A DNA stretch of 64,000 nucleotides, from the sequence record PX441839.1, one strand, 5' to 3'. The notes beneath the pieces were generated by a model. The model was not told the DNA's origin. It did not search any database and saw only the letters and a list, made by a program, of their open reading frames with translations. Below are positions 3,826 through 51,214 of this stretch, piece by piece (within the stretch, counting starts at the first letter, position 1; each line of letters begins with the position of its first letter). This DNA comes from a phage. The translations under genes and the position numbers were made by a program.

Positions 3826-3848
3826 ACCGCCCTTCGGGGCGGTTTTCT
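3826..3848 (+). terminator. rho-independent terminator
   Basis: ACCGCCC-TTCG-GGGCGGT hairpin followed by a T-run. Confidence 0.6.
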
Positions 3849-5862: not shown

Positions 5863-5882
5863 AACTTTCATGAGGTAATTCT

Positions 5883-6344: not shown

Positions 6345-6357
6345 ATAAGGGGTGAGT

Positions 6358-7376: not shown

Positions 7377-7381
7377 TCCGG

Positions 7382-7430
7382 TTATTGATAGGCATTGCTT
7401 ATCAGTGACAAATCAAGGGGCTTCGGCCCC
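7382..7430 (+). promoter_or_regulatory. inverted repeat plus GC hairpin upstream of the sheath gene
   Basis: TTGATAGGcattgCTTATCAg imperfect palindrome, then GGGGC-TTCG-GCCCC hairpin with no following T-tract. Confidence 0.3.
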
Positions 7431-7479
7431 ATATTGGCACAGAAGTGCTTAGTCAATAATCGTTCAAGTAGAGGACAAC

Positions 7480-8895
7480 ATGGCTTATAATGATAAGGTA
7501 GTTGAAGTTGAGGTCAACCTCGGCACCCAGCCTATTAGCACGGCAGGGTTTGAAACTCCGATGTTCCTTGCAATTCACAACGTATTCCCAGAGCGTGTGA
7601 GATTCTATATCTCCACGGAATCTATGGTGGAAGATGGTTTTGCAGTTGGATCTCCGGCACACCAGTTTGCAACAAACGCATTCATGGGTAACTTCAAGCC
7701 AAGCATGATTGCTATTGGTAGAATGGCTCAGTCTGCTGTCAAGGTAGATTTCACTGGCACAACCAACACTGATCGGGTTGTTGTTAACCTGACTGTAAAC
7801 AGGGTTGTAAAAGCTGTTCAGTTAACTCCGGCACCTGGTTCAACACCAGCGGCAATTGCAACTGCATTGGCAACTGCAATTACAGAAGACCAAGACCTCC
7901 CAACCATTACCGCAGTTGCTAACGGAACTTCTGTTACCATCACCGCAGGTGAAGGTGATGTGATGAGTGTTGGTAAGGGAGAGGGAAATTACAAGGTAGT
8001 TTCTGAATCACCGGAGACTGTGGCAACTGCACTTCCTCAAGTAATGGCAGAAAACCACGACTGGTATTTCCTGTCAACAGAGGCACGATCTGATGCAGAT
8101 ATTGTTGCAGCGGCGGAGTTCGCACAGGCAAACTACAAGCTACATGTTTTCAACAGTTCAGACCCCGATGCCTATGCACCGATGAATGTCAGTGCTTCTG
8201 TTTTTGACACCCTGAAAGCTCTGAGCTACACTTCTTTAGGAACAACTGATGCTGATGCGGATGTTGAGTTCACAGAAGGTTCAGTTGTTGGTGCGATGGC
8301 AGGTAATGACCCATCATATGGTGATTCTCTGCACCTGAAAACCATGCCTGGTATGAAGCCTTTCCAAGGTTCAGAAACCCAGCGTATGAATGCTTGGAAT
8401 AGGAACGCAAACACGTATCGTGCCATGTATGGCGGTAACAGCTACATCGAGGGTCGTGTTTCAAACTCTCAGTATGTTGACGTTATTCGCTTCTCACACT
8501 GGGTTAAATTCCGTATGGAAGAGTCCCTGTTTGCGTACATGAAGCGTCGTTCCGATATGGGTCTGTCAATGAAGATGTCAGACGCAGATCTTCCAGTAAT
8601 TAAATCTGTTCTGATGAACAACCCGATCAACATCGGTATCCGTAATGGCGGGATCTTGACTGGCTATGACTCTGTGAATAAGGTCATGTATGACCCGATT
8701 ATCACTGTGCCACGTCGAGCAGAGATCCCAACCAACGATCTTGCTAACCGTATCCTGCGTGATGTTAAAGTTGACTTAGTTTACAACAACTCACTGCATT
8801 ACGTCAAGATTCGTGCTTCTGTGGTTCTCGACCGTCCAGCAGGTCAAGGCACTAATGCCCAGACCCCTATGACCTCTTCCGCTGTAGGAGTGTAA
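7480..8895 (+). CDS. putative tail sheath protein
   Basis: 471 aa; assigned from gene order only (large protein, then 160-aa protein, then frameshifted chaperone, then tape measure); no sheath motif recognised. Confidence 0.6.
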   Translation: MAYNDKVVEVEVNLGTQPISTAGFETPMFLAIHNVFPERVRFYISTESMVEDGFAVGSPAHQFATNAFMGNFKPSMIAIGRMAQSAVKVDFTGTTNTDRVVVNLTVNRVVKAVQLTPAPGSTPAAIATALATAITEDQDLPTITAVANGTSVTITAGEGDVMSVGKGEGNYKVVSESPETVATALPQVMAENHDWYFLSTEARSDADIVAAAEFAQANYKLHVFNSSDPDAYAPMNVSASVFDTLKALSYTSLGTTDADADVEFTEGSVVGAMAGNDPSYGDSLHLKTMPGMKPFQGSETQRMNAWNRNANTYRAMYGGNSYIEGRVSNSQYVDVIRFSHWVKFRMEESLFAYMKRRSDMGLSMKMSDADLPVIKSVLMNNPINIGIRNGGILTGYDSVNKVMYDPIITVPRRAEIPTNDLANRILRDVKVDLVYNNSLHYVKIRASVVLDRPAGQGTNAQTPMTSSAVGV

Positions 8896-19938: not shown

Positions 19939-20454
19939 ATGAAGATGGAAAACTTTGAAGTTTACTCTCCAGAATTTAAAAGGTTTGGAGAGGGCGTCCA
20001 ATATTTTAGGGATGCAGAAGGAAGAGACTTCTATGAGAGTCGTGATCTTTTCACCAAGAAGTATTGCGTGTTCTACGACGAGCATGGGGTTGTAAGGGGT
20101 ATCTGCAAATCAGTGGAGGTTACGAGGGGGAACCCTAACGGTCTATCTATTGCAGATCTCAACTCCTTGCCCAGAGGGTTTGAGATGTTCAAGGGTATCT
20201 GGAAATTCGACGGAAAGAGGATAATTCCTTGTGATTTTGACCCTGCCATAACAACCAAGATGCGGAAGGATAAGTTATTCAAAGCTCTTGCCTCACGACT
20301 TGCCCCTCTTCAAGATGCTGTTGAATTGGAGGAAGCCACAGAGGAAGAGACCTTGGAATATAAAAGGCTCCGTTCATTAAGGGTTAAGCTTCTCCGAGTC
20401 CCAGATGACGAGTCCCCTAGTAATGTAGCTTGGGAAGATTTCTCGGGTATTTAA
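19939..20454 (+). CDS. hypothetical protein (possible tail fiber assembly/chaperone)
   Basis: 171 aa directly after the tail fiber gene; GAGGG RBS. Confidence 0.45.
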   Translation: MKMENFEVYSPEFKRFGEGVQYFRDAEGRDFYESRDLFTKKYCVFYDEHGVVRGICKSVEVTRGNPNGLSIADLNSLPRGFEMFKGIWKFDGKRIIPCDFDPAITTKMRKDKLFKALASRLAPLQDAVELEEATEEETLEYKRLRSLRVKLLRVPDDESPSNVAWEDFSGI

Positions 20455-25114: not shown

Positions 25115-27613
25115 ATGATACCTTTCCCATTATTAGGTGGAAAATCACCAACTCCACCACCGCCACTTCCAAAGGGCGTTTCTGGGTACTCAGGAACTAC
25201 CTACATAGGTGAAGATGGTGAAACTTGGTCTTGGAACAGGCAACTGGAGAGATGGATTAAAAAAGATCCGTTTCCAGTTGACGAAGGGCATCCTGAACAC
25301 TTCATGGTGGGGCCTGCAAAGATAGGCACAGATGGTTCTTTCCGATACTTCAATACTGTAACCAACGCTTGGGAAGATGTTCCTAACGGGAGCACCTTGG
25401 GGATGGTCCCTCTGACCCTGACAGATGAAGGCGTAAACATAGGGACATCGGTATTTGTAGAGTATCCCATTTATCAATCCGCTGGGTATGCCGTAGGTCT
25501 TGGAGGGTTCGCAAGACTGCTTGGGACGGAGGTACTGGGAAGACCAGATCTTATGGACCTGTACCTTATAGGAAGAAGAGGGGATTTCTTTTCACCTTCT
25601 CCTGCAAACCCTGACTCCACCAACGCAATTCTCGTAATTCGAAATGTTAAAAGGGATAGGGTGTGGAATACTTACCTGAACATGGTTGTGGAAACAAGTG
25701 ATGGGGAGATGTGGGCTTGGGGAATGAACTTCTATAATCAGTACGGCCCTTGGATAAGAAGCGGAGTAACAAGTTCCAGTCAACCACACATGAAGATAAA
25801 CCCATTCTCTAAAATATCTGATTTTCCAGTACCACCTGAGAAAATAAAAGATATCTTCCCCGGTGTAACAATGGTCATAGTTGCAGACACTGACGGGAAA
25901 TTCTGGTCCAAAGGGATTAACATTGGTCAGTTTAACGATATTGATGACCAAATTAGGACAGCCTGGGTAGAGATACCCGCAGATAGGTTCCCAGGGTTTA
26001 AAAAGTTTTATCGGAGTCTTAACGGAACAGGTGCCGCCAATGATCTTGCTTACACCAACTGCGTTTGGTATTTGACAGATACAGGGATAAGACATTTTGG
26101 AAATGTGTATGGAGTGATGGACGGTTCCCCACTTGTATCTGCAACAACTAGGGATCTCCCTGACAGTAAAGTTCACTCAGCCCCTGTAGGATTGCCTGAA
26201 AGGAATGATGAGCCTAAAATAGTGAGTTTTTCACTGGCCAGATCTTCTGACTATATCCTTATTGCTGTTTGGTATGATGACCCCGAAGAGATGTATGTTG
26301 CCTATCCTACTTCTGGACTTATTTGGGACCACGCAGATGGAGTAACGTATGGGAGGAGATTCAATAAATCCTCAGCCCCTGTAGGGAAGCATAGGAACCC
26401 CATACTGGACTTCAATAAAGAGGCCACCCTTATAACGGGGTTTGATGGAAAATTCTATGCTTCTGGGACCCCAAGTGTAAATAACGGGCTATACTCAAGA
26501 ACCAGCCCAACCACTTTTATCGACCAGAAGATGCCATCCTCTCTCGTTTATCAGGTTGAGCTATCCGACTCTGTAAACGGAAAAACTCAACTGTTGAGAA
26601 ATGATAGGCGTTCTTTAATGATAGCCGACCTTTCGGGAGGAAGCAACTACTTTGGAAATGGAACTTTCTGGAAACCAACTGCAACGATTAAGTGGCCTGA
26701 CTATCCAGACGCAATTCCAATAGTGTTCAAGAATGATGGTGTCACTATCTCGGGATCTGCTGAAAGGGTAGATACGTTTTGGGGGTGGAATGTTAGCAAC
26801 TACAACACTGTCAGCAGTACAGCCGGAGACCAGTACGGTGCTCCCAGTGGGGATGCTGTGCATGTCTCAGGGGAAGGGCACCTTACAATCTGGAAAGATG
26901 ATAGCAGTATCCTTGTTGGTGGTTACAACATAGGTGGAGTGTTTGGTGCTTTTAACCAGTGGAAGCAACCACAAGGTGCTGGAAGGTGGGTAGGCACAGT
27001 AAGAGAGTCTTTTACTGGCACATCGACAGTAAGCTGCGGAACCACTATTGCTTGGGATGGAAAAGATCATTACATATTTGGCAAAAACTACTGGGATGTT
27101 GCAAACGGACAACCAGTAATAAAGTTCAGTTCCTCTGCACCTGTAAAATGGAACAGTAAACAGGGATACCCGAACCTCCCTAATTTTATAAAATGGATTC
27201 CTGCAATTATGGGATATTCTGATGACGAGGGTTCTTTGCAACAACCCTTCTTTATGTATCGGGGTACTGACGGTCTGTTTTATGCTGCGGGTAGCAATAC
27301 AACAGGTGCCTTGGCGACAGGGACCCCACCTGAGACAAGGGATGAGCAAAGATGGACTTTTGAGGTAATGAAGGGATCTGAGGTGTTTGTTGGTAAAAAT
27401 GTTAAGGTTTACCACGGACACGGAAATACCTCTTGTTTGTTGTTCGCTTGCGAGGGAAAGGTGTACGGTGTTGGATTACCTAACAGTATGAAATGGAATG
27501 ACACCGGAACCATCCCTGACCCGTTCTTCCCTGGTTTCAACAGAAGGCTTAATGAAATCACCTACCTGATGGATTTGCCGGATGTTATCTATACCCGACC
27601 AATAGAAGAATAA
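25115..27613 (+). CDS. RCC1-like beta-propeller repeat protein (candidate distal fiber/receptor-binding protein)
   Basis: 832 aa; GAGGAG RBS; at least 5 repeats of [DG].G..[WYF]..G.N..G type (EMWAWGMNFYNQYG, KFWSKGINIGQFND, KFYASGTPSVNNGLY, LFYAAGSNTTGALATG, KVYGVGLPNSMKWND); last gene of the plus-strand operon. Confidence 0.6.
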   Translation: MIPFPLLGGKSPTPPPPLPKGVSGYSGTTYIGEDGETWSWNRQLERWIKKDPFPVDEGHPEHFMVGPAKIGTDGSFRYFNTVTNAWEDVPNGSTLGMVPLTLTDEGVNIGTSVFVEYPIYQSAGYAVGLGGFARLLGTEVLGRPDLMDLYLIGRRGDFFSPSPANPDSTNAILVIRNVKRDRVWNTYLNMVVETSDGEMWAWGMNFYNQYGPWIRSGVTSSSQPHMKINPFSKISDFPVPPEKIKDIFPGVTMVIVADTDGKFWSKGINIGQFNDIDDQIRTAWVEIPADRFPGFKKFYRSLNGTGAANDLAYTNCVWYLTDTGIRHFGNVYGVMDGSPLVSATTRDLPDSKVHSAPVGLPERNDEPKIVSFSLARSSDYILIAVWYDDPEEMYVAYPTSGLIWDHADGVTYGRRFNKSSAPVGKHRNPILDFNKEATLITGFDGKFYASGTPSVNNGLYSRTSPTTFIDQKMPSSLVYQVELSDSVNGKTQLLRNDRRSLMIADLSGGSNYFGNGTFWKPTATIKWPDYPDAIPIVFKNDGVTISGSAERVDTFWGWNVSNYNTVSSTAGDQYGAPSGDAVHVSGEGHLTIWKDDSSILVGGYNIGGVFGAFNQWKQPQGAGRWVGTVRESFTGTSTVSCGTTIAWDGKDHYIFGKNYWDVANGQPVIKFSSSAPVKWNSKQGYPNLPNFIKWIPAIMGYSDDEGSLQQPFFMYRGTDGLFYAAGSNTTGALATGTPPETRDEQRWTFEVMKGSEVFVGKNVKVYHGHGNTSCLLFACEGKVYGVGLPNSMKWNDTGTIPDPFFPGFNRRLNEITYLMDLPDVIYTRPIEE

Positions 27614-35519: not shown

Positions 35520-37538
35520 TTAAAATTTAATTTTCAGTGTTCGGGTGAAAGAACCAGACACTTTCACAGTAACTTCGTTTCGCACGGTATCCGAGAAACC
35601 AATACCTGCCAACTGACGATCAGACTTGGCAACCTTCATCTTAGCTGCAAGGTGTTCAAACACCTTACCGTGATCTTTAGCCAAATCGTTACGAAGATAC
35701 TCATTATAGAATCCACGAGTACCCTCTGGATTGGCACAGCCCTCAAGGATGAAGAACATGTGCTTGTTTCCTACTCCTTGACCATCCCAATGGTTAGGAG
35801 AGTTCATCACCATAGAAACTTTCTGGAACTGCTCTGTGGCGATACCCCACACTTCCTTGGACTGCTTGGTGCTGCCAATGGAGTCAAGAACCTTGATCCC
35901 GTGGATTCGAGAATACTCGAACGACAACACCTTGACAGAACCTTTCTCACTTACAGCCTTGTCATAAACAAACTGTGTGGAGTTTCCACGGAAATCCAGT
36001 TCAACAACAAAACCTTCACGGTCACGAAGACGTTTGTTAAAGTTTTGAACCTCTACGCGATACACACCCTCAACCATACGGTTCATGTTAGGCCATGTAA
36101 TGTTCTCAACCGGATTGAAAGCATCAGATTCTCCGTATGCGTTCATATCGACATCCAGTTCAGCACCCGTGTTACCAAAACGGTTGCCAAAGTACACACG
36201 ATTCCCGTTAGGTTCAATCAGGTACAGGTCAAGGTCATCTGGGTTAAACCACGACAGAGATACACGCAGTTCACCAGAAACACTACCACCCGCCGCCTTT
36301 ACACGTTCCTTGATAGAGTCTGTAACTTCACCATTGTATGACCAAGAGAAGTTGTTATCCCATTTCAGCATATTAGGTGCATCTGGGTATACAGGTGCCA
36401 CTAACGTCATCAGATTTGGAACATGACGGTTTTCTACCAGAACTTCCAGAGCCTCTGCTTTAGGCAGGACGTTGGAAATAAAGTCTGCAATGCTGATCTC
36501 TTCTGCCTTGGCAGGTCCAGCCTTGGGCTTCTTAGCCGTGGCTAACAGGTCATCAAATGCATTCATCGCCTTCTTAGCTGAACGATCTGCAAACAGAACG
36601 TTATTGATAGTCAGGTCTTCTGCAACAGCATATCGACGAGGCAGTGAATCCATCATGCCCAACTCTTCAACTTTTTCCTGAGCCTTCTTGATCATGGCTT
36701 CTGTAACCAGCGCTGTCGGACGCTTATAGTTTGCCGGGGCCATTACATTTTCCCAACGCTTAACCGCAGTTTCCAGATCCATGCCGTCAGAAAGATCTTG
36801 CAGCAGTGTACCTACCGCAGTGTTTCGGAACTTACCGAAAGCACCAAGTTCTTTACTCTTGGTCCATAAGAACGCATCACGGGACTCATCATTGTCGATA
36901 TTATCAAACTCACGTTTGATTGCAACAAACTTCTCCAGTGTACCTTTGGCTTCATTGCCACGATACAGGGAGTTCTGAGCAATTAGTTCTAAAGCGGTTT
37001 CAGCAGAATCTGTGGTCAGTTCTTTCAGAGAACGTTCCAGAACTTGCTTGTTTCCACGGCTATCGTTTAACTTGGTCGGGATCTTGTCACCTCGCTCAAC
37101 GTACTGGGACGGGAGAACCGCATGGAAGTGATTGAAGATGATAGTCTTCTCGTCACCAGCGCCTAAAATAACAGACCGCTCAGTACCAACCTTCGCCTGG
37201 AAGTGCAGAAACTCGTCAGTTACCTTTGCAGACTTAATAACATCCGCCATGGTATCAACCACCACCTGGTAGTAGCTTGGTACGGAGATGTCCCAAATAG
37301 TTACCATCTTGCCATCAACGAAAGTTACAACTCGACCAAGGTCACGAATAAACTGCTTGCAGCAGTTGCAATCATATTCACGTCGCTCTTTGTAGATCAG
37401 GTTGGTTCCTTCTGGGAAAGAATCCAGGTAGGTGTTCCAAACAAGATCCTTATCCAAGGCCACCTCAAACAGGCCCGTCTTAGCCATCTTGGAAAGTTGT
37501 TTCTGCATTGCTGTTACAAAACCGTGGAAGTTGCTCAT
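35520..37538 (-). CDS. large hypothetical protein (672 aa)
   Basis: Long uninterrupted ORF with RBS; N-terminal Cys cluster (YDCNCCKQF); no family recognised. Confidence 0.6.
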   Translation of the reverse strand: MSNFHGFVTAMQKQLSKMAKTGLFEVALDKDLVWNTYLDSFPEGTNLIYKERREYDCNCCKQFIRDLGRVVTFVDGKMVTIWDISVPSYYQVVVDTMADVIKSAKVTDEFLHFQAKVGTERSVILGAGDEKTIIFNHFHAVLPSQYVERGDKIPTKLNDSRGNKQVLERSLKELTTDSAETALELIAQNSLYRGNEAKGTLEKFVAIKREFDNIDNDESRDAFLWTKSKELGAFGKFRNTAVGTLLQDLSDGMDLETAVKRWENVMAPANYKRPTALVTEAMIKKAQEKVEELGMMDSLPRRYAVAEDLTINNVLFADRSAKKAMNAFDDLLATAKKPKAGPAKAEEISIADFISNVLPKAEALEVLVENRHVPNLMTLVAPVYPDAPNMLKWDNNFSWSYNGEVTDSIKERVKAAGGSVSGELRVSLSWFNPDDLDLYLIEPNGNRVYFGNRFGNTGAELDVDMNAYGESDAFNPVENITWPNMNRMVEGVYRVEVQNFNKRLRDREGFVVELDFRGNSTQFVYDKAVSEKGSVKVLSFEYSRIHGIKVLDSIGSTKQSKEVWGIATEQFQKVSMVMNSPNHWDGQGVGNKHMFFILEGCANPEGTRGFYNEYLRNDLAKDHGKVFEHLAAKMKVAKSDRQLAGIGFSDTVRNEVTVKVSGSFTRTLKIKF

Positions 37539-37568
37539 GTATATCTCCTTTGTAATTGGTTTCAGGTA

Positions 37569-37883
37569 TTACTTAATTGTGATAAAGTTTACTTTATTTT
37601 CTGCCAGGATGTCAATACGTAATTGACGTTCATTTTCACGATAGTCGTCTATAATCTTATCCAACCTCTCTTTTTCCTCCTCATATTTTTCAGGAGGAAG
37701 TACACGGATTATGCTTTCAGCACGGTAATAGCTGTAATCATTTACCTTTACTGACCCATCCCCTTGAAGAAATCCCTTGCTGACCCTGTATTTTGGAAAA
37801 AGGTCATACTTAACAATCGCCGTAACTGGCATTCCAAGTTCCCCCATCTTACACCACCTTTCTCTCCATATAAGCTTTAGCAA
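37569..37883 (-). CDS. hypothetical protein
   Basis: 104-aa ORF. Confidence 0.45.
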   Translation of the reverse strand: MLKLIWRERWCKMGELGMPVTAIVKYDLFPKYRVSKGFLQGDGSVKVNDYSYYRAESIIRVLPPEKYEEEKERLDKIIDDYRENERQLRIDILAENKVNFITIK

Positions 37884-38088
37884 CTTGAATCCCTAATCGC
37901 TCCTGCGGGGTAGCTTCTTTGAAGCCTTCCCCCATCATTTTACGAAGTTGATACTGAGTCATTGCAGATTTAATGGTCTCTTCGTAACACTCGATTTCAA
38001 CTGTAAACTTGACGATTTTCTTATCAGTCATGTTGGCCCCCTTTGTGCTTCGATGGGTGTATATTACCAGCTTTGATCTTGAAGTCAA
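37849..38088 (-). CDS. hypothetical protein
   Basis: 79-aa ORF. Confidence 0.45.
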   Translation of the reverse strand: MTSRSKLVIYTHRSTKGANMTDKKIVKFTVEIECYEETIKSAMTQYQLRKMMGEGFKEATPQERLGIQVAKAYMERKVV

Positions 38089-38102
38089 CAGTTTTATGCA
38101 AT

Positions 38103-38128
38103 AAAAAACCGCCCCGAAGGGCGGTTTT
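38103..38128 (-). terminator. rho-independent terminator (end of the leader-family cassette)
   Basis: AAAAAACCGCCC-cgaa-GGGCGGTTTT; on the minus strand the hairpin is followed by a T-run directly after the stop of the 38131 gene. Confidence 0.65.
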
Positions 38129-38130
38129 AA

Positions 38131-39258
38131 TTAATCTACACTTGCACTTATTTCAGTCGCAAGTCTAAAGCTCCCTTCGACCAAGCCAGGGATCTCCTCA
38201 ACATTGTTAATTACAACATTTGACACTCTGACAGGAGGAGAACTCGGCAGGTAATCCTCCACCTTGCTTGCCACAACATCACCGTTTGTGTTTTTGACCA
38301 CCAGTTTCGAGGCAGATCTTGATGTAGTGGTTGGAGCCTTTGTGTACGTTGTAACCTGAACAGCTTTTATCTGTTGACCACCTGGTGCTCTCCAGCTTGG
38401 GGACAGGGCTACAATTGGTGCCTTCCCTACAGTTTCAGATGCCAATGAATTCACAGCAGGGGAGTTCATAGCCCTCCCCATTGTATTTGAACCCCCATAG
38501 ACGATATCTGAAATTGTTTGTGTCGTTCCTCCAGAGAAGCTACCTATGTCAGTGACACTTTGTGTTGTTCTTGTTATTTGGGGTTCACCCAAGAACTCAA
38601 AATTCCCTTCTTCATTGTATGCAGTATACATCCTTCCAAACATTAGTGGGTTAACAGTGTCGCCAAAGGCAACTCCATCGTACAAAGCACCAGAGAACCC
38701 TATGAAAAGTCCAGTCCCAACTGGCATACGCTCTGCGAAAGTGTAAGGACCAAGCGGCCCTGCCGGGGCATCTCCGTTGAGTGAGTTCCATGTCTCAAAG
38801 CTATCTTCACTGACCTTTCTTATACACACCTCCATGTAGTTATAACCAGGGGTGTACGATGATCGCATCAGGACTGTAGATGGGTCAACCCCATTGAACT
38901 GGTTTGTAAGTATCCCCGTCCGGAGGAATCCTCTATTAAAGGGGAAGAATACCCGATACCCGAAGGTAAAGGTGGCATTCACTGGAGCTTCAAGAAGTAT
39001 CTTCCTGACATCTATGGTGAACCCACCATAATCTCCAGTGGAGCTTGTAAACCTGATTGCGAACACGGGGGATGATCCTCCACTCTGGGAGGCGGTCATA
39101 AGGGACCCCGGCAAGGTAGGTGATTTTATCATAGATATTGACACACCGAGCTTTTTTGACAGGTACTCCTCAAGACCCTTTTCATAATCGTTGCTGGAAT
39201 TATATGCGAATGGTGTCATATCCAAAAAATCTGTAAATCCGAGTATTGCCATAATCAC
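38131..39258 (-). CDS. paralog family protein, copy 3 (375 aa)
   Basis: Shares N-terminus (MIMAILGF) and internal motifs (YMEVCIRKVS; AYNEEGNFEFLG) with the 39449 and 40752 genes. Confidence 0.6.
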   Translation of the reverse strand: MIMAILGFTDFLDMTPFAYNSSNDYEKGLEEYLSKKLGVSISMIKSPTLPGSLMTASQSGGSSPVFAIRFTSSTGDYGGFTIDVRKILLEAPVNATFTFGYRVFFPFNRGFLRTGILTNQFNGVDPSTVLMRSSYTPGYNYMEVCIRKVSEDSFETWNSLNGDAPAGPLGPYTFAERMPVGTGLFIGFSGALYDGVAFGDTVNPLMFGRMYTAYNEEGNFEFLGEPQITRTTQSVTDIGSFSGGTTQTISDIVYGGSNTMGRAMNSPAVNSLASETVGKAPIVALSPSWRAPGGQQIKAVQVTTYTKAPTTTSRSASKLVVKNTNGDVVASKVEDYLPSSPPVRVSNVVINNVEEIPGLVEGSFRLATEISASVD

Positions 39259-39452
39259 TCCTTAATTGGTGATGTTAAGACTTCTGTTACCACGAGTAGC
39301 GTGTTCTGTGCCAACTCAGGTTGAAGGAGAACCTCTGTGACCACAATGCCGACATTGGCAGAAAATTGTGGTGTAATAAGAACCTCTGTTGTCACTAAAT
39401 AGACGTTGGAAAACATTGCCTGTTCCCCAACGGCGGTCATGATTTCAATCAT
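39255..39452 (-). CDS. leader microprotein with 3 x 17-aa tandem repeats (VVTEVL type)
   Basis: MIEIMTAVG leader, then three 17-aa units with core V(V/T)TEVL; stop overlaps the start of the 38131 gene (ATGA). Confidence 0.55.
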   Translation of the reverse strand: MIEIMTAVGEQAMFSNVYLVTTEVLITPQFSANVGIVVTEVLLQPELAQNTLLVVTEVLTSPIKE

Positions 39453-40525
39453 ACATCCACAACCCTCTCGCTGGAAGCAACGAACGAAAGACCTGCCAAC
39501 TGGTCCCTTCCTGAAAGTGGAATAGTCACCTTGCTAACCCCACGGGCGTAATCTTGACTATCGTTCTTTATGCTTTTCGATTTCAAAAGCTCACCATCAG
39601 AACTTACTATCTGAGATGTGATATCCACAGACTTGCCTTGTACACTTGATCTTCCAACTAGTGTAGAGCTAACCGCAGCAATCTTCACAGAAGGGTCAAG
39701 AGTTGAAAGATTAGCTTTTGCCACTGCTGGGTTTACTAGGGTTGTTGGACCCAGCAATCCTCCCAAGTGATTATAGTTTAATCTGTTGGTAAGTGTTGCC
39801 TCCCCGTTTGGGTTATCACCTCCAGATACCAGTGTGTTTGGTAATGTTCTTACCGAGCAAGTTCCCAAACGCTCCTCAAGACCTTCCTTGTTGAATGCCC
39901 AATATTGGTCCATAAATGTTACCTCCACTTGAGTGGTTGGTAACTTATTGGTGGTAAGAGGGGACCAATTATACCCAGTGCCTATTACCATTTGCTGGGG
40001 AAGAGAGTTTACAGAATCGTTTTGCAAGACAGTGCCGTCAACCCAAGCCCTTAGTCGATATGAGGTTGCAGAAACTTTACTTACTTCAAGCTCCACGTAC
40101 ACTGATCTTTCTGATCCCGAGTACCTCTGCATAGGGTAATCCAAAACTGCTGCCAAAGATCCAGAGGTAAACCCTCCCAACCTTAGGTCTGCGGTCATAT
40201 ATTCTTGGGGGATGATTACTCGGCTTCCGACCGTAAGGGTATCGCCAACATCCACAATCCAAGGCCCAATCGACGTCACAGTTGCTGCGTATGATGTCAT
40301 CGTCGGAAAGAATGACACCTTATTTTGACCAACGGTTCCGTACATGGTGCCGGATGAAATGTAGTAATCGAATCTACCTCCGTTTGAACCCACAGGGGTT
40401 TTTGGAATACAAGCGGCATTTAATGTTTGTAGCAGCAGGAGCGCATCGTTACCTTGTATTTGCCCCTTGTTAGGGAATTCCCTGAGGGAACCGAACCCAT
40501 TGATGTGAAAAATCATACAACTCAC
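39449..40525 (-). CDS. paralog family protein, copy 2 (358 aa)
   Basis: MSCMIFHINGF; DVGDTLTVG; YVELEVSKVS; RAWVDG; FMDQYWAFNKEGLEERLG; homologous to the 40752 gene. Confidence 0.6.
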   Translation of the reverse strand: MSCMIFHINGFGSLREFPNKGQIQGNDALLLLQTLNAACIPKTPVGSNGGRFDYYISSGTMYGTVGQNKVSFFPTMTSYAATVTSIGPWIVDVGDTLTVGSRVIIPQEYMTADLRLGGFTSGSLAAVLDYPMQRYSGSERSVYVELEVSKVSATSYRLRAWVDGTVLQNDSVNSLPQQMVIGTGYNWSPLTTNKLPTTQVEVTFMDQYWAFNKEGLEERLGTCSVRTLPNTLVSGGDNPNGEATLTNRLNYNHLGGLLGPTTLVNPAVAKANLSTLDPSVKIAAVSSTLVGRSSVQGKSVDITSQIVSSDGELLKSKSIKNDSQDYARGVSKVTIPLSGRDQLAGLSFVASSERVVDV

Positions 40526-40713
40526 CCCACAGTATAAAGATATTCTTGAACAAAAGCCGCTGAGTTAATCTCTGACGGGACATAATACAGATATTCTTGA
40601 ACAAAAGCAACAGTATCTGTATTTGTTGGGGAGTAGTACAGGTACTCCTGAACAAAAGTCACAATCTCAGGATTAATGGCTCCACTTCCAGAGGCTGTCA
40701 TCATCTCCAACAT
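40522..40713 (-). CDS. leader microprotein with 3 x 17-aa tandem repeats (FVQEYLY type)
   Basis: MLEMMTASG leader, then (V/A)(T/A)FVQEYLY x3 at 51-nt period; GAGGTAA RBS; stop overlaps the 39449 gene start. Confidence 0.55.
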   Translation of the reverse strand: MLEMMTASGSGAINPEIVTFVQEYLYYSPTNTDTVAFVQEYLYYVPSEINSAAFVQEYLYTVG

Positions 40714-40719
40714 AGCATT

Positions 40720-40745
40720 ACCTCAATAAGACGCCCCGAAGGGCG
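40720..40745 (-). terminator. intra-cassette hairpin (possible attenuator)
   Basis: ACGCCC-cgaa-GGGCGT hairpin between the 40752 gene stop and the 40713 start. Confidence 0.4.
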
Positions 40746-40751
40746 TGTGAC

Positions 40752-41804
40752 TTAAACATTCGGTTCTTTTTCCCTTGAAGATACGAAACTGTAGTTTGTA
40801 AGTTCAGACATTGGTTTATCACTCACATCCAAAACTGTTTCACAGAAACCTCCACGATAATCAGGGGTTACAGATTCCTTTGTGGTTGAGGATACTACCT
40901 TTCCAGTGTGATCCAGAATCTGACTGGTCACCGGAGCAGGAACTCCCGTTACCGACGACTTACCTACAGTTGTCATCTTAAAAGCCTTAATCCTTAGGTT
41001 AGGGTTCGGGCTTGGCATATTCACCTTTTGTACCATAGGGTCGCGAAGGGTTATCGGGTCCTGAGACCCTTTCGAGAGATCCCAATTAACCCTTGCGGTC
41101 CCCCAAGTGGACCCACCAGGGTTTTCACTTCCTGCCGTTAATGTTCTTGGGACTTGGGTCACGGTTGCTCTCCCAATTCTCTCATCCCTTCCCTCAGTAT
41201 TAAATGCAAAATAGATATCTTGGAAATAAAAACTCCCCGCTGGGTTGGTGTTGGATTTCCAAAGAACACTTGTTCCAATAGCACCATAGTTGAACAGTTC
41301 CGACCCTTGACCCGCTTTCCTCAAAAGACCGTTTACCCACATCTCGTAAGTGTATGGGTAATCAGGATGATCTGTTTTTCTAACTACCATCTCCACATAC
41401 GGATTAGCTGTCCTATCTGTGTGGTCACAAACCATGGTTAATGACGACAGATACCCATTTGAAAATCCACCAACCGCAGGTAATGAATTTGCGTGAGTAG
41501 ATGTCATACCCAATCCACAACCAACCGTCAAAGCGTCCCCAACATCAATAATTATGGATGGGAGGTGAATATTCAAACATCCGATCCCTGATGGACCCAA
41601 TACGTTCATTGACAACCTGTTGGTCCCAGGTAAAGATAGATTAGGGCTAGAACTCTGGTATGCATAATTTGCAAAAGTTGCACCTTGCTTTGGGCTTTGT
41701 GGGTGCCCGTACCGCAGAGAAGTTAAAACGGTTTGGATATCGTTAGTGCTTACCAAGTTAGTTAATGGCTCCCACACAGAAAACCCCTGAATTCCGATAA
41801 TCAT
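40752..41804 (-). CDS. paralog family protein, copy 1 (350 aa)
   Basis: MIIGIQGF; DVGDALTVG; YVEMVVRKT; MWVNG; FQDIYFAFNTEGRDERIG. Confidence 0.6.
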   Translation of the reverse strand: MIIGIQGFSVWEPLTNLVSTNDIQTVLTSLRYGHPQSPKQGATFANYAYQSSSPNLSLPGTNRLSMNVLGPSGIGCLNIHLPSIIIDVGDALTVGCGLGMTSTHANSLPAVGGFSNGYLSSLTMVCDHTDRTANPYVEMVVRKTDHPDYPYTYEMWVNGLLRKAGQGSELFNYGAIGTSVLWKSNTNPAGSFYFQDIYFAFNTEGRDERIGRATVTQVPRTLTAGSENPGGSTWGTARVNWDLSKGSQDPITLRDPMVQKVNMPSPNPNLRIKAFKMTTVGKSSVTGVPAPVTSQILDHTGKVVSSTTKESVTPDYRGGFCETVLDVSDKPMSELTNYSFVSSREKEPNV

Positions 41805-42001
41805 ACACTTTCCTCTATAACGTATAAATATTCCGGCATTAAACCTATCGTACTTACATCGGGAATGATGGAGTACAAGTATTCCGGCATAATGCCTATA
41901 AGATTTACCTCTGGGGCCAGAATATAAAGATATTCCGGCATAAGACCTATGACCTCAACTGGGGCCTTTCTTACCCCTGATGCCGTCATCAATTCTATCA
42001 T
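41801..42001 (-). CDS. leader microprotein with 3 x 17-aa tandem repeats (MPEYLY type)
   Basis: MIELMTASG leader, then IG(L/I)MPEYLY x3; stop overlaps the 40752 gene start (ATGA). Confidence 0.55.
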   Translation of the reverse strand: MIELMTASGVRKAPVEVIGLMPEYLYILAPEVNLIGIMPEYLYSIIPDVSTIGLMPEYLYVIEESV

Positions 42002-42013
42002 ACATACCCCCGA

Positions 42014-42850
42014 TTACACTTTTCTTGCATTGCTGGGAAATTCTCGTTTCTCCGTATCACCCCATATGATCCTTACAGCAGATGCACCTGGGGCATTTGA
42101 AGATCCGTGTCCAGACCCACCTCCGAAGTTTCCTCCTCGTCTACCACTCTGGTCTTCGCCTCCAGACCCACCTCTTGCACTTGTGGGGATTTGACCACCC
42201 CTGCCCCCTGCACCATTGACACCTACTCCGTAAATACCCACTCCACCACCGCCACCTGAGTTTTCACCAGATGACCCTGAGAAGTAATATCCTACAGATC
42301 CTCCACCCCCACCACCTTCCCCGCTACCTCCAGCGGAGTAATTTGTAGAAGGGGGGTATGCATTACCTCCGTCCCCTCCCTTTCCTATATACCCTGCTGC
42401 ACCTCCAGCGCCAGCACATCTTTTCCTGTCATTGGCGGAGGAGTTACTCCCTCCAGCACCACCTTTGTTTATTACCGCACCACCCATATCAGGATACGAT
42501 CCTGTGTAAGGTTCCGGTCCAGAACCAAACCCTGCGACAACCAGCGGAGTTCCATCCCGAAAAAGTCCAACAACAGTTGTCCCATCATCGCTGCCTCTTG
42601 TGTGGACCTGTAGAGTCTCCCCAGGTAGCACAGGTATGTGGTTTCTCCATACTAGGTCTCCCCCAGCACCACCTCTACGTGGGAGAGGATCTGTTTGAGG
42701 CATCCCTCCTTGACCGACACACACTACGCTAATATCTTCCACATTGTTTGGAACAACCCACAACTTAGGTGCAGTAGTGAGGGAAGTGTACTCCACATTC
42801 CCTAGTTTAACTGGAGCTTTAGTTTTTACCGTCGCTGTCATTAATTCTAA
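42014..42850 (-). CDS. Gly-rich protein with the shared N-terminal leader
   Basis: Start at internal ATG (MLELMTATVKTKAPV) with AAGAGGAAA RBS; C-terminal 60% is poly-Gly-rich (GGAGGSNSS...GGSGEGGGGGGSVGYYFSGSSGENSGGGGGVGIYG...). Confidence 0.55.
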   Translation of the reverse strand, partial: LELMTATVKTKAPVKLGNVEYTSLTTAPKLWVVPNNVEDISVVCVGQGGMPQTDPLPRRGGAGGDLVWRNHIPVLPGETLQVHTRGSDDGTTVVGLFRDGTPLVVAGFGSGPEPYTGSYPDMGGAVINKGGAGGSNSSANDRKRCAGAGGAAGYIGKGGDGGNAYPPSTNYSAGGSGEGGGGGGSVGYYFSGSSGENSGGGGGVGIYGVGVNGAGGRGGQIPTSARGGSGGEDQSGRRGGNFGGGSGHGSSNAPGASAVRIIWGDTEKREFPSNARKV

Positions 42851-43269
42851 CATAACTTTCCTCTTTAAGATACTAATTCTAGAACGGGTCTCCATCCAAG
42901 ATCGGTATTAGCTGTACCGTTAATCTTCCCACCGAAGATATTCCCAGTAGACTAGGAGATACCTCTGCGTGGAACATGTTATTTTGGTACATTGTGAATT
43001 CAGTCGATAGTGAGTACCTGCCGTAAATTGGAGGGTTAAAGTCCGTAGTTGGCAAAGTCAGAAGTGTCATAAGTACCTCTCTAAAATTCAATGCAATTGG
43101 ATCGCTGTTTATAAAACCATAAAGTCTTCCTTCCAAATTACCACAATTTCAAGCATTATTTACCCTCTGTGTTGCATGGAAGGATCTTTATTGATCCTCG
43201 ACGTACCGCAGGATTCTTATCACTCCTTGCACACTGTTGTCGGGTACTGGTGAGTATAGCCTAGGTATC

Positions 43270-43806
43270 TCAAGTATATATAAACTCCCCTGTAAAGTTT
43301 ACATCCGTGTATATTCCACGAAACGGAGATACAATCTTCATCAACCCGCTTACAGGGTCTAAGTACACAAAATTAGTAACCGTATATCCTAAGTAACTGG
43401 AGTAAGAGTTACTGGTGTGGTTATTCCTTGAAACCGAAATATATTGATTATAAGTAACAGTTACTGTTTTCGTTATAAGGACGGTAGAATTAGTCCGCAG
43501 CAGGGCTTGGTACGTACCATACGAAGGTGAGGCATGTTGCGCTACCAGATACCACCAAGAGTCGTAAGTTACCGAAGTTCCGTATGGGCTTCCCCACATC
43601 CTCCCGTCTGTTGAGTACACTTTCCCGACATCATACGCCATAGTTTGGGCCGGAGCAGTGACCTCGGGTATCCAAGACCCTGCCGCCTGATTGTCAGGGA
43701 TACGGAGTATTCCCCTTTGTTGGTCTAGCCATTTTAGAAACACAGGATAGGTCATGGGGCCCTCGATTGGGGCGGATGCCCCTGATACCGACAGTAACTC
43801 AAGCAT
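43270..43806 (-). CDS. hypothetical protein with the shared N-terminal leader
   Basis: Start at internal ATG (MLELLSVSGASAP) with GGAGAG RBS; the longer track ORF would run through the upstream terminator. Confidence 0.5.
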   Translation of the reverse strand: MLELLSVSGASAPIEGPMTYPVFLKWLDQQRGILRIPDNQAAGSWIPEVTAPAQTMAYDVGKVYSTDGRMWGSPYGTSVTYDSWWYLVAQHASPSYGTYQALLRTNSTVLITKTVTVTYNQYISVSRNNHTSNSYSSYLGYTVTNFVYLDPVSGLMKIVSPFRGIYTDVNFTGEFIYT

Positions 43807-43824
43807 AAATCTCTCCAATATTTG

Positions 43825-43847
43825 AAAGGGGCCGAAGCCCCTTTTTT
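43825..43847. terminator. bidirectional terminator hairpin
   Basis: AAA-GGGGC-cgaa-GCCCC-TTTTTT between the DNA polymerase exon 2 and the leader cassette. Confidence 0.6.
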
Positions 43848-43862
43848 CTTTGTACAGAGGGT

Positions 43863-43895
43863 ATTTTAACACGGACGCTTTGAATTATCCACAAG
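43863..43895 (-). promoter_or_regulatory. putative extended -10 promoter (TGtTAAAAT) for the leader cassette
   Basis: Minus-strand TGTTAAAAT just upstream of the terminator hairpin and the 43806 gene; -35 is weak. Confidence 0.3.
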
Positions 43896-43928
43896 GTATA
43901 AAACCACCCCATAGAACAAGCGCATAAC

Positions 43929-44228
43929 TCAGTGACATTGCCCCCAATTAAGTCCTGTCAGATACTCACCTGTGATATGTACAGGTGCCTTCATCATCTT
44001 AGCTGCTTGTTCAACGCAACGAACAACCATTTCACCGACAGGGCAGTAGATGATAGTGAATATTCCATTCTCATCGGGGTCGCACTTAAACTTACCTTCC
44101 TTGACACAATGACCATCCAGAACCATACGCTTCTTGAGGCAATCCTCAACAAAAGCTTTTGCTTCGACTTCATTGTCAAACTTCCATTCCTTCTTGAACT
44201 TATTTGGAACTTCAAGCTGGTATTCATC
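43929..44228 (-). CDS. DNA polymerase family A, exon 2 (C-terminal end)
   Basis: Begins at DEYQLEVP (second half of the Pol A motif C, HDE...E.P) and ends ...TGLNWGQCH, like the Pol I C-terminus; the leading Met of the track ORF is probably intron-derived. Confidence 0.6.
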   Translation of the reverse strand, partial: DEYQLEVPNKFKKEWKFDNEVEAKAFVEDCLKKRMVLDGHCVKEGKFKCDPDENGIFTIIYCPVGEMVVRCVEQAAKMMKAPVHITGEYLTGLNWGQCH

Positions 44229-44998
44229 CAAAGTTTAGCAGGTTCGTTAATCCTGCCCACACCATTACGTGTTGCCATACGGTTTCCCGTAGGATCGGAC
44301 TATATCACCACCCTTTTCAGGGTGCTCCCCATTTCGACGCCACTTGGTCGCCTACGCCTCTCGGCTAGTCTCTGAACGTTAAGACCACGTATACTTCTCG
44401 GAAATATGCTTCCACTGCCGACGCTGCTTAATGGCTCGTACTGTTGCATAGGGGAATCCCATGTCGCGTACCTCTGCCTGGCTCATTCCGCTTTCAAGAA
44501 GCTGGCAAATGGTCATCACTTCGTCTTCTGTGAGGGCACTATTAGCATTGTTGATACCTTCCGCGCTGCGACAGTTGTGGCGATAGGCGTTCTCTATGTT
44601 TTTGCCTCTCGTAACCCACTGTAGGTTGTCTTTGTGGTTATTCCTTTTATCGGGCCACTTGTGATCAACCTCTGGAAGATTGTTCGGATTGGGAACAAAA
44701 CATTCTGCCACCAAAACATGGACCGCCTTTGTCGTCGCCTTTTTGTTAAGGTAAAGACTGACAATTGCATACCCTCTTCCATTATCAACATGCTTCATAG
44801 GTTTACCTCGACGACCTATAATGGTCCCGTCCTCGTAAACTTTATATCCGAAATAGTCTTTGTACTCCACGTAGTCCTCTTCGCTGCTGATTAACATAGC
44901 TGCACTTTAGTTTATTATTAACCCAGTGTCAACCTTAGCCTTCCAGCAATTAAAGGAGTTTTCGATGTAGGTTGCCCTACAAAGCCACAATGTTACTT
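44229..44998 (-). mobile_element. group I-like intron in the DNA polymerase gene, carrying an HNH homing endonuclease ORF
   Basis: About 770 nt separate the exon 1 end (...VRRIIYYH) from exon 2 (DEYQLEVP), splitting motif C. It contains an HNH ORF and an 80-nt core conserved with the second intron. Boundaries approximate. Confidence 0.55.
44379..44897 (-). CDS. HNH homing endonuclease
   Basis: 172 aa; HVLVAECFVPNPNNLPEVDHKWPDKRNNHKDNLQWVTRGKN is an HNH-type motif; lies between the polymerase fragments. Confidence 0.75.
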   Translation of the reverse strand: MLISSEEDYVEYKDYFGYKVYEDGTIIGRRGKPMKHVDNGRGYAIVSLYLNKKATTKAVHVLVAECFVPNPNNLPEVDHKWPDKRNNHKDNLQWVTRGKNIENAYRHNCRSAEGINNANSALTEDEVMTICQLLESGMSQAEVRDMGFPYATVRAIKQRRQWKHISEKYTWS

Positions 44999-47326
44999 AT
45001 GGTAATAGATAATACGACGAACTCCCTCGTCATACCATCCCTTCTTGACCAGTTGCCAGTGAAGCAAGATTCCAACCAGGTCAAATAGTGCTGCACCACC
45101 ATTCTGCTGAAATGCGTTCAACAGGGAGTGCTTTGAACGAGTCCAAATCTTACGCCCATCCAAACCATAGATGAATCTTTTCCCTGTCGCTTCCCAGAAT
45201 TTCTCCAGCGCTTCTTTACGACCTTTTAATCCGATGTTGCTATCCCAGAATGCGTTGATTACATCCTGTGCCTTATCTACTGTGATTCCAAGCATGGATG
45301 CAATCTTGGGTGCCTGAGCGCCGTACATGATTCCATACGTGATACTCTTTCCCTCGCCACGAGAAACCTTCTTCCCCGCTGCCTTTGTGTATGCCTCTGC
45401 GTTTCGGGTGTGGGCGTCCCCCGACTCCATGATTTCAAGGTAAGCGCCACCATCGAACTCATACGCACCCCAAGCCGCAATCATACCTTCCAGGTTAGAA
45501 CCATCAATACCCACTTGGTACTTACCCTTTGGTGCTCGCCAAAGGGAACGCATCTCATAACCAAACAACACCTTCGGATCAGGCTTAGGCATGTTTGCGC
45601 AGATCGTGTGCTTACGACGCCCAGTGTTGGTAATCCCTGAGAACCTTGCTGGTAATCGACCATCAATCTTCAAGCGTGGGTGGTTAAGAAGTCCAGTATC
45701 AACCTTATCCTCTTTCAGTGGATCAAGGACAGATCGTCGGTTACGTGCAGATAACCACTGAACAATGCCTTTAGCCATCGCACCATCCACCTTTTCCAAG
45801 TTTGGGCACAATCCCTGCTGGTCTTTCAACTGAGGGCTTGTTGGCAATGCACGGGCCTTCTTACGGAAGAATTTGAACATCTTCTCCTTGTCTGCCCACT
45901 GCTTAGGGGTAATGTGCAAGTTCTTAAGGATAAGATCACGATATTCTGTCTGATCTAGTTGCTCAATATACTCCCGCACAATTGCATCAACTTCACCATC
46001 CGGACGTTGCTTTTTAAACTGGTCCTTTGTTGCATCCTTTGTACGCCAAATTGTTGGAATCCAACCCGCATCTCGGATGAGGAACTTCTTAACATCATCC
46101 TGGTTACCGATACGCATCGGAATCATTATATCTGGCATGGTCTTATTCTTCAAGTCCGCCAAAGCCCGTGCCATATCCTCTGGAGGTAGTGGCTCCAGTG
46201 TGGATTGTTTTTCGTTCTGACTACGAATGAACTGAGGCATTTGATCCTCATCTTCCACCCCGTGGTCATTACAGTATTTAATAGCCGCAGCCGTAAGTGA
46301 ACCATCTGCCTTAAATGCTTTAGCCGGAGGCCCCTTGAAATCAAGGGCTTCCCAATTAATATTGTATCCTAACTTCTCCAGCCATTTCCAACCTGTGCCG
46401 GACAATGTCCCGTCACCCTTGAAAGGTTTGGATGGGAAAGTTGGTTGTGCGGATTTAGCCATCTCTTTCTTCGGAAGCTGAGGCTCAACCTCTTCCTCAA
46501 TCTTCTTCATGAAGGCATCAACCGTATCGCGGAGTTTCAGCGCCGCCTCTATGTCAAAATCAACACCTTGGATTTCTTGCTCAATCATCAGGTAATCGGT
46601 AAGCATACCTCGACGAAGAGAGTCTTTCCAGTTGATCATTTTATATTTTGTTGGGACACGCTCATCTTTAAACATGAAGCGTTTATCATCTGGGTACGCA
46701 TCGCAGGTGATTTCCTTCATAAGGGCGTCCCACACCTTTTCGTTGATGATAACGTCCTCAATGATACGGTCACAATACTTCCACAACGGGAGTCCACGCC
46801 AATCATCAATGGCGACTTTCAGGTTGGCTACTCTCATACCCCATGCTTCCAGACCATGAGGGCCAACAGGTTTCATCTTTCCTGTGACAGGGTTTTTAAC
46901 CATTTCTGGGCAACCCTTCGGCAATGGGCGGTCAGGGTAGAGTGTACGAGACATAGACAAGGAGTCAAACAGGTTAACCTGTTTTCCATTGATCGTTCCC
47001 ATGCACTTAGGATCGGCAAACATATCGTATTGTGTACCGAACAGCTTCTTGAACAGACGTAAGTCATATCCAAACAAGTTGTGAATAACAATGCTACTAG
47101 GGACTTCTGTGAACCATCTATTAAGGTCAGAGAAGTTCATTACATGCAGATTGAATCCCTTCGCATTAACGAAGTTCAAAGCCTCTTGATAACCCTCTCG
47201 CGCTGGGTCCATGAAGAGATACCAGTTATCCTTTTTGTACTCCTTGAAGAGGATGCAGTGAGCATGTAAGTTCTCCTCGTCAAGTAAACCAGATGCTTCC
47301 GCATCACCTACCCATAAACCTTTCAT
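44999..47326 (-). CDS. DNA polymerase family A, exon 1 (3-5 exonuclease and polymerase domains through the start of motif C)
   Basis: Motif A-like DGSNLEGM (D.S..E), motif B-like KSITYGIMYGA (K...YG..YG), N-terminal exonuclease-like region; ORF ends abruptly at ...VRRIIYYH-K-stop inside motif C. Confidence 0.8.
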
Positions 47327-51187: not shown

Positions 51188-51214
51188 AAAAAGGCCCCCG
51201 AAGGGACCTTTTAT
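51188..51214 (-). terminator. putative terminator after helicase exon 2
   Basis: AAAAAAGGCCCC-cgaa-GGGACCTTTT, imperfect stem with flanking A and T runs. Confidence 0.4.

Follow-up and report, generated by a model that had tools for sequence, protein, structure and literature searches.

The DNA considered here is a window of 64 kb (64,000 nucleotides, the whole stretch that was analysed) from the phage sequence record PX441839.1, and its source is a Vequintavirinae-type myophage. From 1 to 27.6 kb, the plus strand codes for sheath, tape measure, baseplate and several tail-fibre proteins, and genes of replication type are on the minus strand. The latter strand also holds, downstream of a DNA polymerase gene that is split by an HNH endonuclease gene, a cluster in which three microproteins of 63 to 66 residues, made of a short N-terminal tag and three repeats of 17 residues, are each followed by a gene for one of three related large proteins. 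The tag also heads other proteins of the same cluster that are unrelated to the microproteins. Each microprotein most likely tethers copies of its large protein to a common docking site, which is probably on the virus particle. The features of the cluster, all on the minus strand and given in the order of transcription, are as follows.

43270..43806, minus strand: tag-bearing protein of 178 residues (MLELLSVSG...), from the open reading frame (ORF), the motif and a match to phrog_6409 at E 2e-24
42879..43156, minus strand: decayed tag-bearing LamG gene, MLEIVVIWKEDFMVL closed by a stop codon and then the fragment EGRLYGFINSDPIALN, from translation and a match at E 4e-7 to a Laminin_G_3 protein of Salmonella phage SSBI34
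42014..42853, minus strand: tag-bearing Gly-rich protein of 279 residues (MLELMTATVKTK...), from the ORF, the motif and phrog_4474
41801..42001, minus strand: micro1, 66 residues, tag MIELMTA and three units of 17 residues, core IG(L/I)MPEYLY, from the ORF and repeat alignment
40752..41804, minus strand: large1, 350 residues, predicted concanavalin A (ConA)-like jelly roll with a C-terminal beta-sandwich, from the ORF, AlphaFold2 (AF2) and fold matches
40731..40746, minus strand: GC-rich hairpin with a TTCG loop between pairs 1 and 2, CCCTTCGGGG, from reading of the sequence
40522..40713, minus strand: micro2, 63 residues, tag MLEMMTA and three units of 17 residues, core (V/A)xFVQEYLY, from the ORF and repeat alignment
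39449..40516, minus strand: large2, 355 residues from the ATG at 40516; an alternative GTG at 40525 (358 residues) overlaps the micro2 stop
39255..39452, minus strand: micro3, 65 residues, tag MIEIMTA and three units of 17 residues, core (V/L)VTEVL, from the ORF and repeat alignment
38131..39252, minus strand: large3, 373 residues from the ATG at 39252, with an alternative GTG at 39258 (375 residues), from the ORF and phrog_28811
38100..38128, minus strand: terminator-like hairpin (CCGCCCTTCGGGGCGG, then a T run) at the end of the cluster, from reading of the sequence

A preliminary description of this region had reported the three ORFs of 63 to 66 residues, each with a downstream ORF of 350 to 375 residues, and these are present as it gave them. 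The range that it assigned to the system, 39255-42001, holds the microproteins and omits large3 (to 38131) and the tag-bearing genes upstream (to 43806). It had further described each microprotein as a leader followed by three 17-residue repeats. Glu residues stand at positions 3, 23, 40 and 57 in each of the three, which bears out this division into a 20-residue head and three 17-residue units, and the repeat cores that it quoted are correct. Its view of the repeats as 51-nt tandem repeats holds for the 17-residue units of the protein but not for the DNA: Tandem Repeats Finder, run on positions 36000-45000, reported nothing repeated in the DNA of the microprotein genes, whose units share 42-74% nucleotide identity and carry numerous synonymous differences. 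The repeats exist at the protein level only.

The period of 17 residues is maintained across related genomes, as the preliminary description had proposed to check. Genomic context was taken for 11 related loci, namely those of SSBI34, phage CR9 and nine metagenomic contigs, and all 17 homologous microproteins from these loci keep the period (17/17); the Glu of the head and that of each repeat are invariant across them. Three of the homologues have a two-repeat form, and one of these differs from a three-repeat relative by the deletion of exactly one unit. Repeat cores share 75% identity within one microprotein versus 34% between microproteins. Because many synonymous differences separate the repeats of a single microprotein, their likeness points to selection on the peptide and not to recent gene conversion, and it is expected if every strand must fit one site on one partner.

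Comparison of orthologous microproteins gave proportions of nonsynonymous differences (pN) of 0.21-0.31 and of synonymous differences (pS) of 0.67-0.79, with synonymous sites saturated, and a ratio of nonsynonymous to synonymous substitution rates (dN/dS) of about 0.24. For example, micro2 and its orthologue at locus L008 gave a pN of 0.21 and a pS of 0.79, and micro3 and its SSBI34 orthologue a dN/dS of 0.24. The microproteins are under purifying selection, which, with the constant period and the confinement of the tag to gene starts of the cluster (described below), makes a pattern that chance would not produce. Scans of their sequences against Pfam, NCBIfam and PHROG returned no match. The head itself resembles the repeat core in its pattern of any residue, Glu and two hydrophobic residues (IEIMTA compared with TEVLIT, PEYLYI and QEYLYY). 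As a sequence, the microprotein looks like one canonical strand motif joined to two or three specialised ones, a likeness that does not prove a common origin.

Each microprotein ORF has its own ribosome-binding site. The preliminary description stated that the stop codon of every microprotein overlaps the start of the following large gene as ATGA, and took this to imply translational coupling. The overlap is as described in pair 1; pairs 2 and 3 have GTGA, and large2 and large3 likely start at ATGs 9 and 6 nt past the respective GTGs, at 40516 and 39252. A Shine-Dalgarno sequence lies 4-5 nt upstream of each of these ATGs, and the resulting N-termini, MIFHINGF and MAILGF, can be aligned with MIIGIQGF of large1. 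Strict coupling was not borne out, each large gene having a strong ribosome-binding site of its own. The same ribosome-binding sites also count against a programmed frameshift that would join microprotein and large protein, a candidate that was rejected on the relative frame of the two genes, which varies (it is -1 in the window and +1 both in CR9 and in one pair of SSBI34).

The tag of the three microproteins reads M-[LI]-E-[LIM]-M-T-A. In the six-frame translation of the window, the slightly wider heptapeptide M-[LI]-E-[LIM]-[LM]-[TS]-[AV] was found at only five gene starts, all of them in the cluster: those of micro1, micro2, micro3, the Gly-rich 279-residue protein and the 178-residue protein. 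A sixth copy, MLEIVVI, heads the 15-codon stub MLEIVVIWKEDFMVL, and the fragment EGRLYGFINSDPIALN downstream of the stub matches residues 151-178 of the tag-bearing Laminin_G_3 protein of SSBI34. Since this fragment is homologous to an intact SSBI34 LamG gene, positions 42879-43156 represent a decayed cassette. With the decayed copy included, the pattern becomes M-[LI]-E-[LIM]-[LMV]-[TSV]-[AVI], which no other N-terminus in the window fits. The tag is conserved as protein, as synonymous codons vary between its copies; the same variation rules out a signal in RNA or DNA.

The same sharing of one tag by different proteins was found in SSBI34, CR9, the loci L003, L011 and L013, and the jumbo Erwinia phage RAY. 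In SSBI34 the carriers include a Laminin_G_3 protein, which has 221 residues and matches PF13385 at E 3e-8, and a Gly_rich_2 protein. Proteins of 258 and 310 residues on metagenomic contigs also begin with the tag. The Gly-rich 279-residue protein of the window is 83% identical to its SSBI34 orthologue, and a further orthologue, gene 19 of phage PVP-SE1 (MFEMMLA...), directly follows a split DNA polymerase gene. Neither the Gly-rich protein nor the 178-residue protein has a Pfam or NCBIfam match. Homologues of the latter in RAY begin MLELLMY... and MLEMLMG..., and the tag-bearing gp282 and gp283 of that phage are encoded directly downstream of its DNA polymerase gene. Because the heptapeptide is shared with unrelated globular proteins of the locus, the "leader" of the microproteins is better understood as a common docking or targeting tag than as a leader peptide. 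As a separate observation, the RAY locus (L016) holds at 5882-8026, directly downstream of the DNA polymerase gene, a Gly-rich protein (MIGLLL...) and two tag-bearing homologues of phrog_6409.

The three large proteins are homologous, as had been proposed, with pairwise identities of 28-35% and a common match to phrog_28811, a phage protein family without functional annotation. The match of large3 covers residues 1-331 (E 1.6e-31), and those of large1 (4.5e-7) and large2 (6.9e-5) are partial. No Pfam match was found for any of the three at E <= 1, and NCBIfam and Protein Data Bank (PDB) sequence searches were also empty. Members of the family are very scarce: among 1.84 billion representative proteins, a profile search found 16 matches, a word-indexed search of 5.8 billion gave two, and a search with large1 alone gave three weak partial matches (29% over 84 residues).

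In the 11 related loci, 17/17 homologues of the large proteins are directly preceded by a gene of 46 to 67 codons for a tag followed by two or three repeats, and gene callers predicted these small genes independently. Divergence of the microproteins is correlated with that of the large proteins (Mantel r = 0.57, 0/5000 permutations). This correlation is consistent with binding, but adjacent genes would also co-diverge by co-inheritance. The pairing, the correlation and the strand seen in the AF2 fusion model described below support the earlier proposal that microprotein and large protein form cognate units. At 6713-7796 of the SSBI34 locus (L001), a large homologue that is paired with a microprotein of the LSIEYA type is broken into ORFs of 236 and 123 residues in different frames, through either an error in the sequence record or a frameshift that has made it a pseudogene.

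For structure prediction, micro1 was joined to large1 through a 20-residue Gly/Ser linker and modelled as one chain by AF2 with a paired alignment of 15 such fusions. The model had a predicted template modelling score (pTM) of 0.79, with a predicted local distance difference test score (pLDDT) of 85-95 over the large part. With a pLDDT of about 90, repeat 3 (residues 49-62) formed a continuous beta-strand, and scores below 50 were obtained for repeats 1-2 and the tag. The large protein is predicted to consist of a ConA-like jelly roll and a C-terminal beta-sandwich. Foldseek, run against the PDB, matched the large1 model to the receptor-binding domain of botulinum neurotoxin (BoNT), TtX122A, Aly36B and calreticulin. 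Its nearest predicted viral structures, in BFVD, are phage proteins of 340-370 residues with the same two-domain build, one of which, from Achromobacter phage AchV4, is annotated as a "virion structural protein". The jelly-roll or lectin-like fold that the preliminary description had put forward as a speculation is thus supported by prediction. Residues Y136, E138, Y198, N202 and E208 (large1 numbering) are invariant in the family and do not obviously reproduce the motifs of PL7 lyases. From this fusion model and the evolutionary pattern, the repeats would bind the large protein as added strands. On geometry alone, 17 extended residues span about 56 Å, which would leave room for one jelly-roll domain per repeat.

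The genes around the cluster are far more conserved than the cluster itself. In SSBI34, the closest record, the DNA polymerase, a DUF8224 protein and small neighbours are 92-100% identical in protein to those of the window, whereas micro3 and large3 are 61% and 53% identical and the remaining cassettes differ altogether. The locus from 43806 to 38131 is a hypervariable cassette island in a conserved backbone. With the 5.9-kb cluster as query, megablast gave no match among 50,697 phage records. The presence of the same neighbourhood in the unrelated, nucleus-forming phage RAY suggests that the cassettes travel with the polymerase gene or insert beside it.

Several features of this neighbourhood are of interest in their own right. 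The DNA polymerase I gene (43929-47326, minus strand) is split into an N-terminal part at 47326-44993 (777 residues) and a C-terminal part at 44231-43929, and a free-standing endonuclease gene of the HNH/AP2 type lies between them at 44897-44379. The SSBI34 polymerase is uninterrupted (876 residues, 98% identical), and CR9, CB7 and PVP-SE1 have other endonuclease insertions at the polymerase gene. The cassettes have possibly spread by hitch-hiking on the traffic of homing endonucleases. The DUF8224 protein (35520-37538, minus strand, 672 residues, 92% identical to that of SSBI34) comes after the cassette island in all related loci; its N-terminal part is Cys-rich and its C-terminus a weak P-domain-like jelly roll. 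The sequence CCCTTCGGGG, with a GC stem and a TTCG loop, occurs four times in the window versus 0.15 expected, at 3830-3839, 38112-38121, 40734-40743 and 51196-51205, always at the end of a gene and on the strand that is transcribed, and is probably a standard terminator or RNA-stabilising hairpin of the phage. Two of the copies mark off sub-units of the cluster. A scan of the cluster for promoter and terminator consensus sequences did no better than on shuffled sequence.

Compared to known systems, the closest parallel is the branched arrangement of phage receptor-binding proteins (RBPs), in which peptides of seven or eleven residues dock secondary RBPs on a T4gp10-like branching domain or an adapter (PMC6872550, PMC13352976). 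For example, RBP2 of the KP34 type ("MALxxLV") and KP32 gp38 dock on the T4gp10-like branching domain of RBP1; in KP32 gp38, Leu2, Asp3, Phe5 and Asn6 make predicted contacts, and the peptide is required for incorporation (PMC6872550, PMC13352976). The tailspikes of K1-5, K1E and SP6 dock on the adapter gp37 (Leiman 2007, as cited in PMC6872550). Both systems have a very short, hydrophobic-rich N-terminal peptide common to otherwise unrelated proteins of one phage (7-11 residues in the known cases, M-L-E-L-M-T-A here), and in both the variable parts are glycan-directed and the locus is a cassette hot-spot. They differ in that the carriers here are small (170-370 residues) and of ConA-like, LamG and Gly-rich types, and are not trimeric beta-helix tailspikes. 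Furthermore, the tag of one family resides here on a separate repeat microprotein of 63 to 66 residues that is proposed from modelling to bind its partner by strands, for which no precedent was found in the literature searched. By analogy, the cluster may work like a branched RBP system, of which it is not a demonstrated member.

The proposed binding mode has a counterpart in chaperone-usher pili, which are built by donor-strand complementation, a form of beta-strand augmentation. In both cases a short amphipathic strand from another polypeptide is added to the beta-sandwich of a partner, here according to the AF2 prediction. There is no relation in sequence or fold, and one peptide here would offer two or three identical donor strands in a predicted interaction. 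The predicted jelly roll is shared with the ConA-like lectin/glucanase superfamily, which includes PL7, PL18, PL20 and PL36 lyases, CBM22, calreticulin and the receptor-binding domain of botulinum toxin; the large proteins differ from it in having no sequence-profile membership, no identifiable lyase catalytic residues and an extra C-terminal beta-sandwich. The 279-residue neighbour, as distinct from the pairs of microprotein and large protein, may be compared with T4-type gp38 adhesins, which are likewise small Gly-rich proteins thought to bind cell-surface receptors, but no homology between them was detectable. Docking by short peptides is a known principle; new are the separation of the adaptor as a microprotein with repeated strands for capture, the cargo of lectin type and the position of the genes next to the polymerase. 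Neither the microproteins nor the large family nor the shared tag was found described in searchable records or literature, and public records list the products as hypothetical proteins.

The reading that is preferred here, tentatively and at a little under even chances, combines a shared docking heptapeptide with a separate microprotein, the multivalent adaptor of a lectin- or lyase-like protein lacking the tag. The heptapeptide would be a docking tag by which diverse small proteins of glycan-binding type (Gly-rich, LamG, phrog_6409 and others) all plug into a single acceptor, which most likely sits on the virion. The microproteins would be free-standing adaptors that lend this plug to the tag-less ConA-like protein encoded immediately downstream. 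Each 17-residue unit would offer a beta-strand of about 10 residues, with three or four hydrophobic residues, the invariant Glu, a further hydrophobic residue and Leu, to bind the partner. One tag might thus carry two or three copies of the lectin- or lyase-like protein through repeated donor strands, and three diverged pairs would provide three specificities; both this stoichiometry and a glycan ligand are inferred. A broader version, in which a universal heptapeptide plug is borne either by lectin-type proteins themselves or by a "cable" of 46 to 67 residues that captures one ConA-like copy per strand, and in which the cassettes spread beside the polymerase, is more doubtful as a whole. On that version, the particle would gain arrays of exchangeable multivalent glycan binders or depolymerases, and the cassettes would move with the endonuclease-invaded polymerase gene between Vequintavirinae and nucleus-forming jumbo phages.

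A place on the virion is suggested by a precedent in a relative. In Pectobacterium phage CB7 (Certrevirus), CB7_55 is the only virion protein of gene region 2, outside the morphogenesis region, that was detected by ESI-MS/MS (tandem mass spectrometry with electrospray ionization) of purified particles (PMC7344957). In the sequence record, CB7_55 lies beside the DNA polymerase and starts with MQEMMIV, a variant of the tag; its similarity to the tag-bearing 258-residue protein of L003 is not significant (E 0.41). The C-terminal part of the 178-residue protein resembles the C-terminus of CR5_143, a "virion structural protein" encoded in a block of virion genes, and the recognisable domains of the tag system are all of glycan-binding types (ConA-like, Laminin_G_3 and Gly_rich_2). 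The hypervariability of the island within its conserved surroundings also speaks for the virion. A candidate for an unusual receptor-binding or acceptor protein is possibly found in the product of 25115-27613 (plus strand, 832 residues) at the end of the tail-fibre block, which has no PHROG match and a weak match to an RCC1-like beta-propeller.

Several observations weigh against a multivalent adaptor on the virion. The cluster belongs to a block of replication or early type next to the DNA polymerase; the tail module is on the other strand, with the tail-fibre genes 10-16 kb away, and this position lends no support to the adhesin or receptor-binding role suggested in the preliminary description. 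Pfam and PHROG scans of 13 tail-module proteins of the window gave no match to a T4 gp10-like branching domain. PVP-SE1 gene 19 and RAY gp282-284 are annotated as hypothetical only; the latter are also not among the approximately 44 proteins listed by mass spectrometry of a crude RAY lysate, a result that is uninformative on virion content. The docking of a repeat comes from one single-chain fusion model built from 15 sequences, and the docked strand is the repeat nearest the artificial linker. A model of one microprotein with three copies of the large protein (single chain, 1191 residues, seven sequences) failed, with a pLDDT of 47.9 and a pTM of 0.31, and is uninformative on stoichiometry. 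Furthermore, an obligatory three-fold arrangement is ruled out, because two-repeat variants exist.

On a rival reading, the cluster would be an intracellular arms-race island serving counter-defence, host takeover or superinfection exclusion, with the heptapeptide as a tag for targeting, recruitment or turnover and the microproteins bringing their partners to a cellular or viral factor. The placement beside the DNA polymerase in both Vequintavirinae and the jumbo phage RAY agrees with such a role, as do the annotation of the homologues as mostly hypothetical, not structural, and the hypervariability against a conserved backbone, which is usual for defence and counter-defence genes. However, the tag-bearing CB7_55 was found in purified virions, the domains are of extracellular glycan-binding kinds and do not handle nucleic acids or nucleotides, and annotated virion proteins of jumbo phages have the phrog_6409 domain again at their C-terminus. 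An intracellular role is judged unlikely, though likelier than the other alternatives. Rather less probable is a role of the microprotein as a chaperone or scaffold in assembly, in which it would donate its strand transiently as a template for folding or oligomerisation of the large protein and the shared N-terminus would serve a purpose other than docking. Tight gene pairs with cognate co-variation and the placement of the repeat as an added strand by AF2 would suit a chaperone. Small dedicated chaperones are often required by fibre proteins of phages, and the tail module contains a Caudo_TAP gene (19939-20454). Known fibre chaperones, however, are encoded downstream of their clients, whereas the microproteins are encoded upstream of their partners, and they have no N-terminal tag in common with unrelated globular proteins. 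Pfam and PHROG gave no match for the microproteins, hence no profile of the Caudo_TAP type, and the near-identity of their two or three strands, maintained by selection, points to multivalent binding and not to catalytic help in folding.

The architecture of a leader with repeated cores, the invariant motifs of the E-Y-L-Y type and the tight linkage to a larger gene also recall ribosomally synthesized and post-translationally modified peptides (RiPPs), with the microprotein as precursor and the large protein as modifying or processing enzyme. This is very improbable: the "leader" also heads globular proteins of 170-310 residues, the large protein is predicted to be a ConA-like jelly roll with no match in Pfam or NCBIfam to a RiPP maturase, RiPP recognition element (RRE) or peptidase, and the locus has no transporter or protease gene. 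Least credible of all is that the small ORFs are untranslated and the repeats incidental upstream sequence of the large genes. Small ORFs of this kind are mostly annotated as hypothetical in public records; yet the dN/dS of about 0.24 at saturated synonymous sites, the Glu positions and 17-residue period that are invariant across 17 homologues, the ribosome-binding site of each ORF and the independent gene calls in 11 loci all speak for translated proteins.

Short docking peptides on receptor-binding proteins have already been used to re-engineer host range. If the multivalent-adaptor reading is true, the cluster would represent a new way to diversify particle surfaces, and the microprotein would be a tiny, ready-made multivalent adaptor that accounts for the recruitment of lectin- or lyase-like proteins without the tag and that could be used in the design of synthetic phages. 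If the intracellular alternative is true instead, the shared tag would be a new targeting signal in infected cells. The multivalent-adaptor reading would also give a role to the hypothetical families phrog_28811, phrog_4474 and phrog_6409 in phages under study for biocontrol, with Salmonella, Cronobacter, Pectobacterium and Erwinia as hosts, and it would mean that cassettes of the host-range type can escape notice in the replication module, away from the region that is normally inspected for them.

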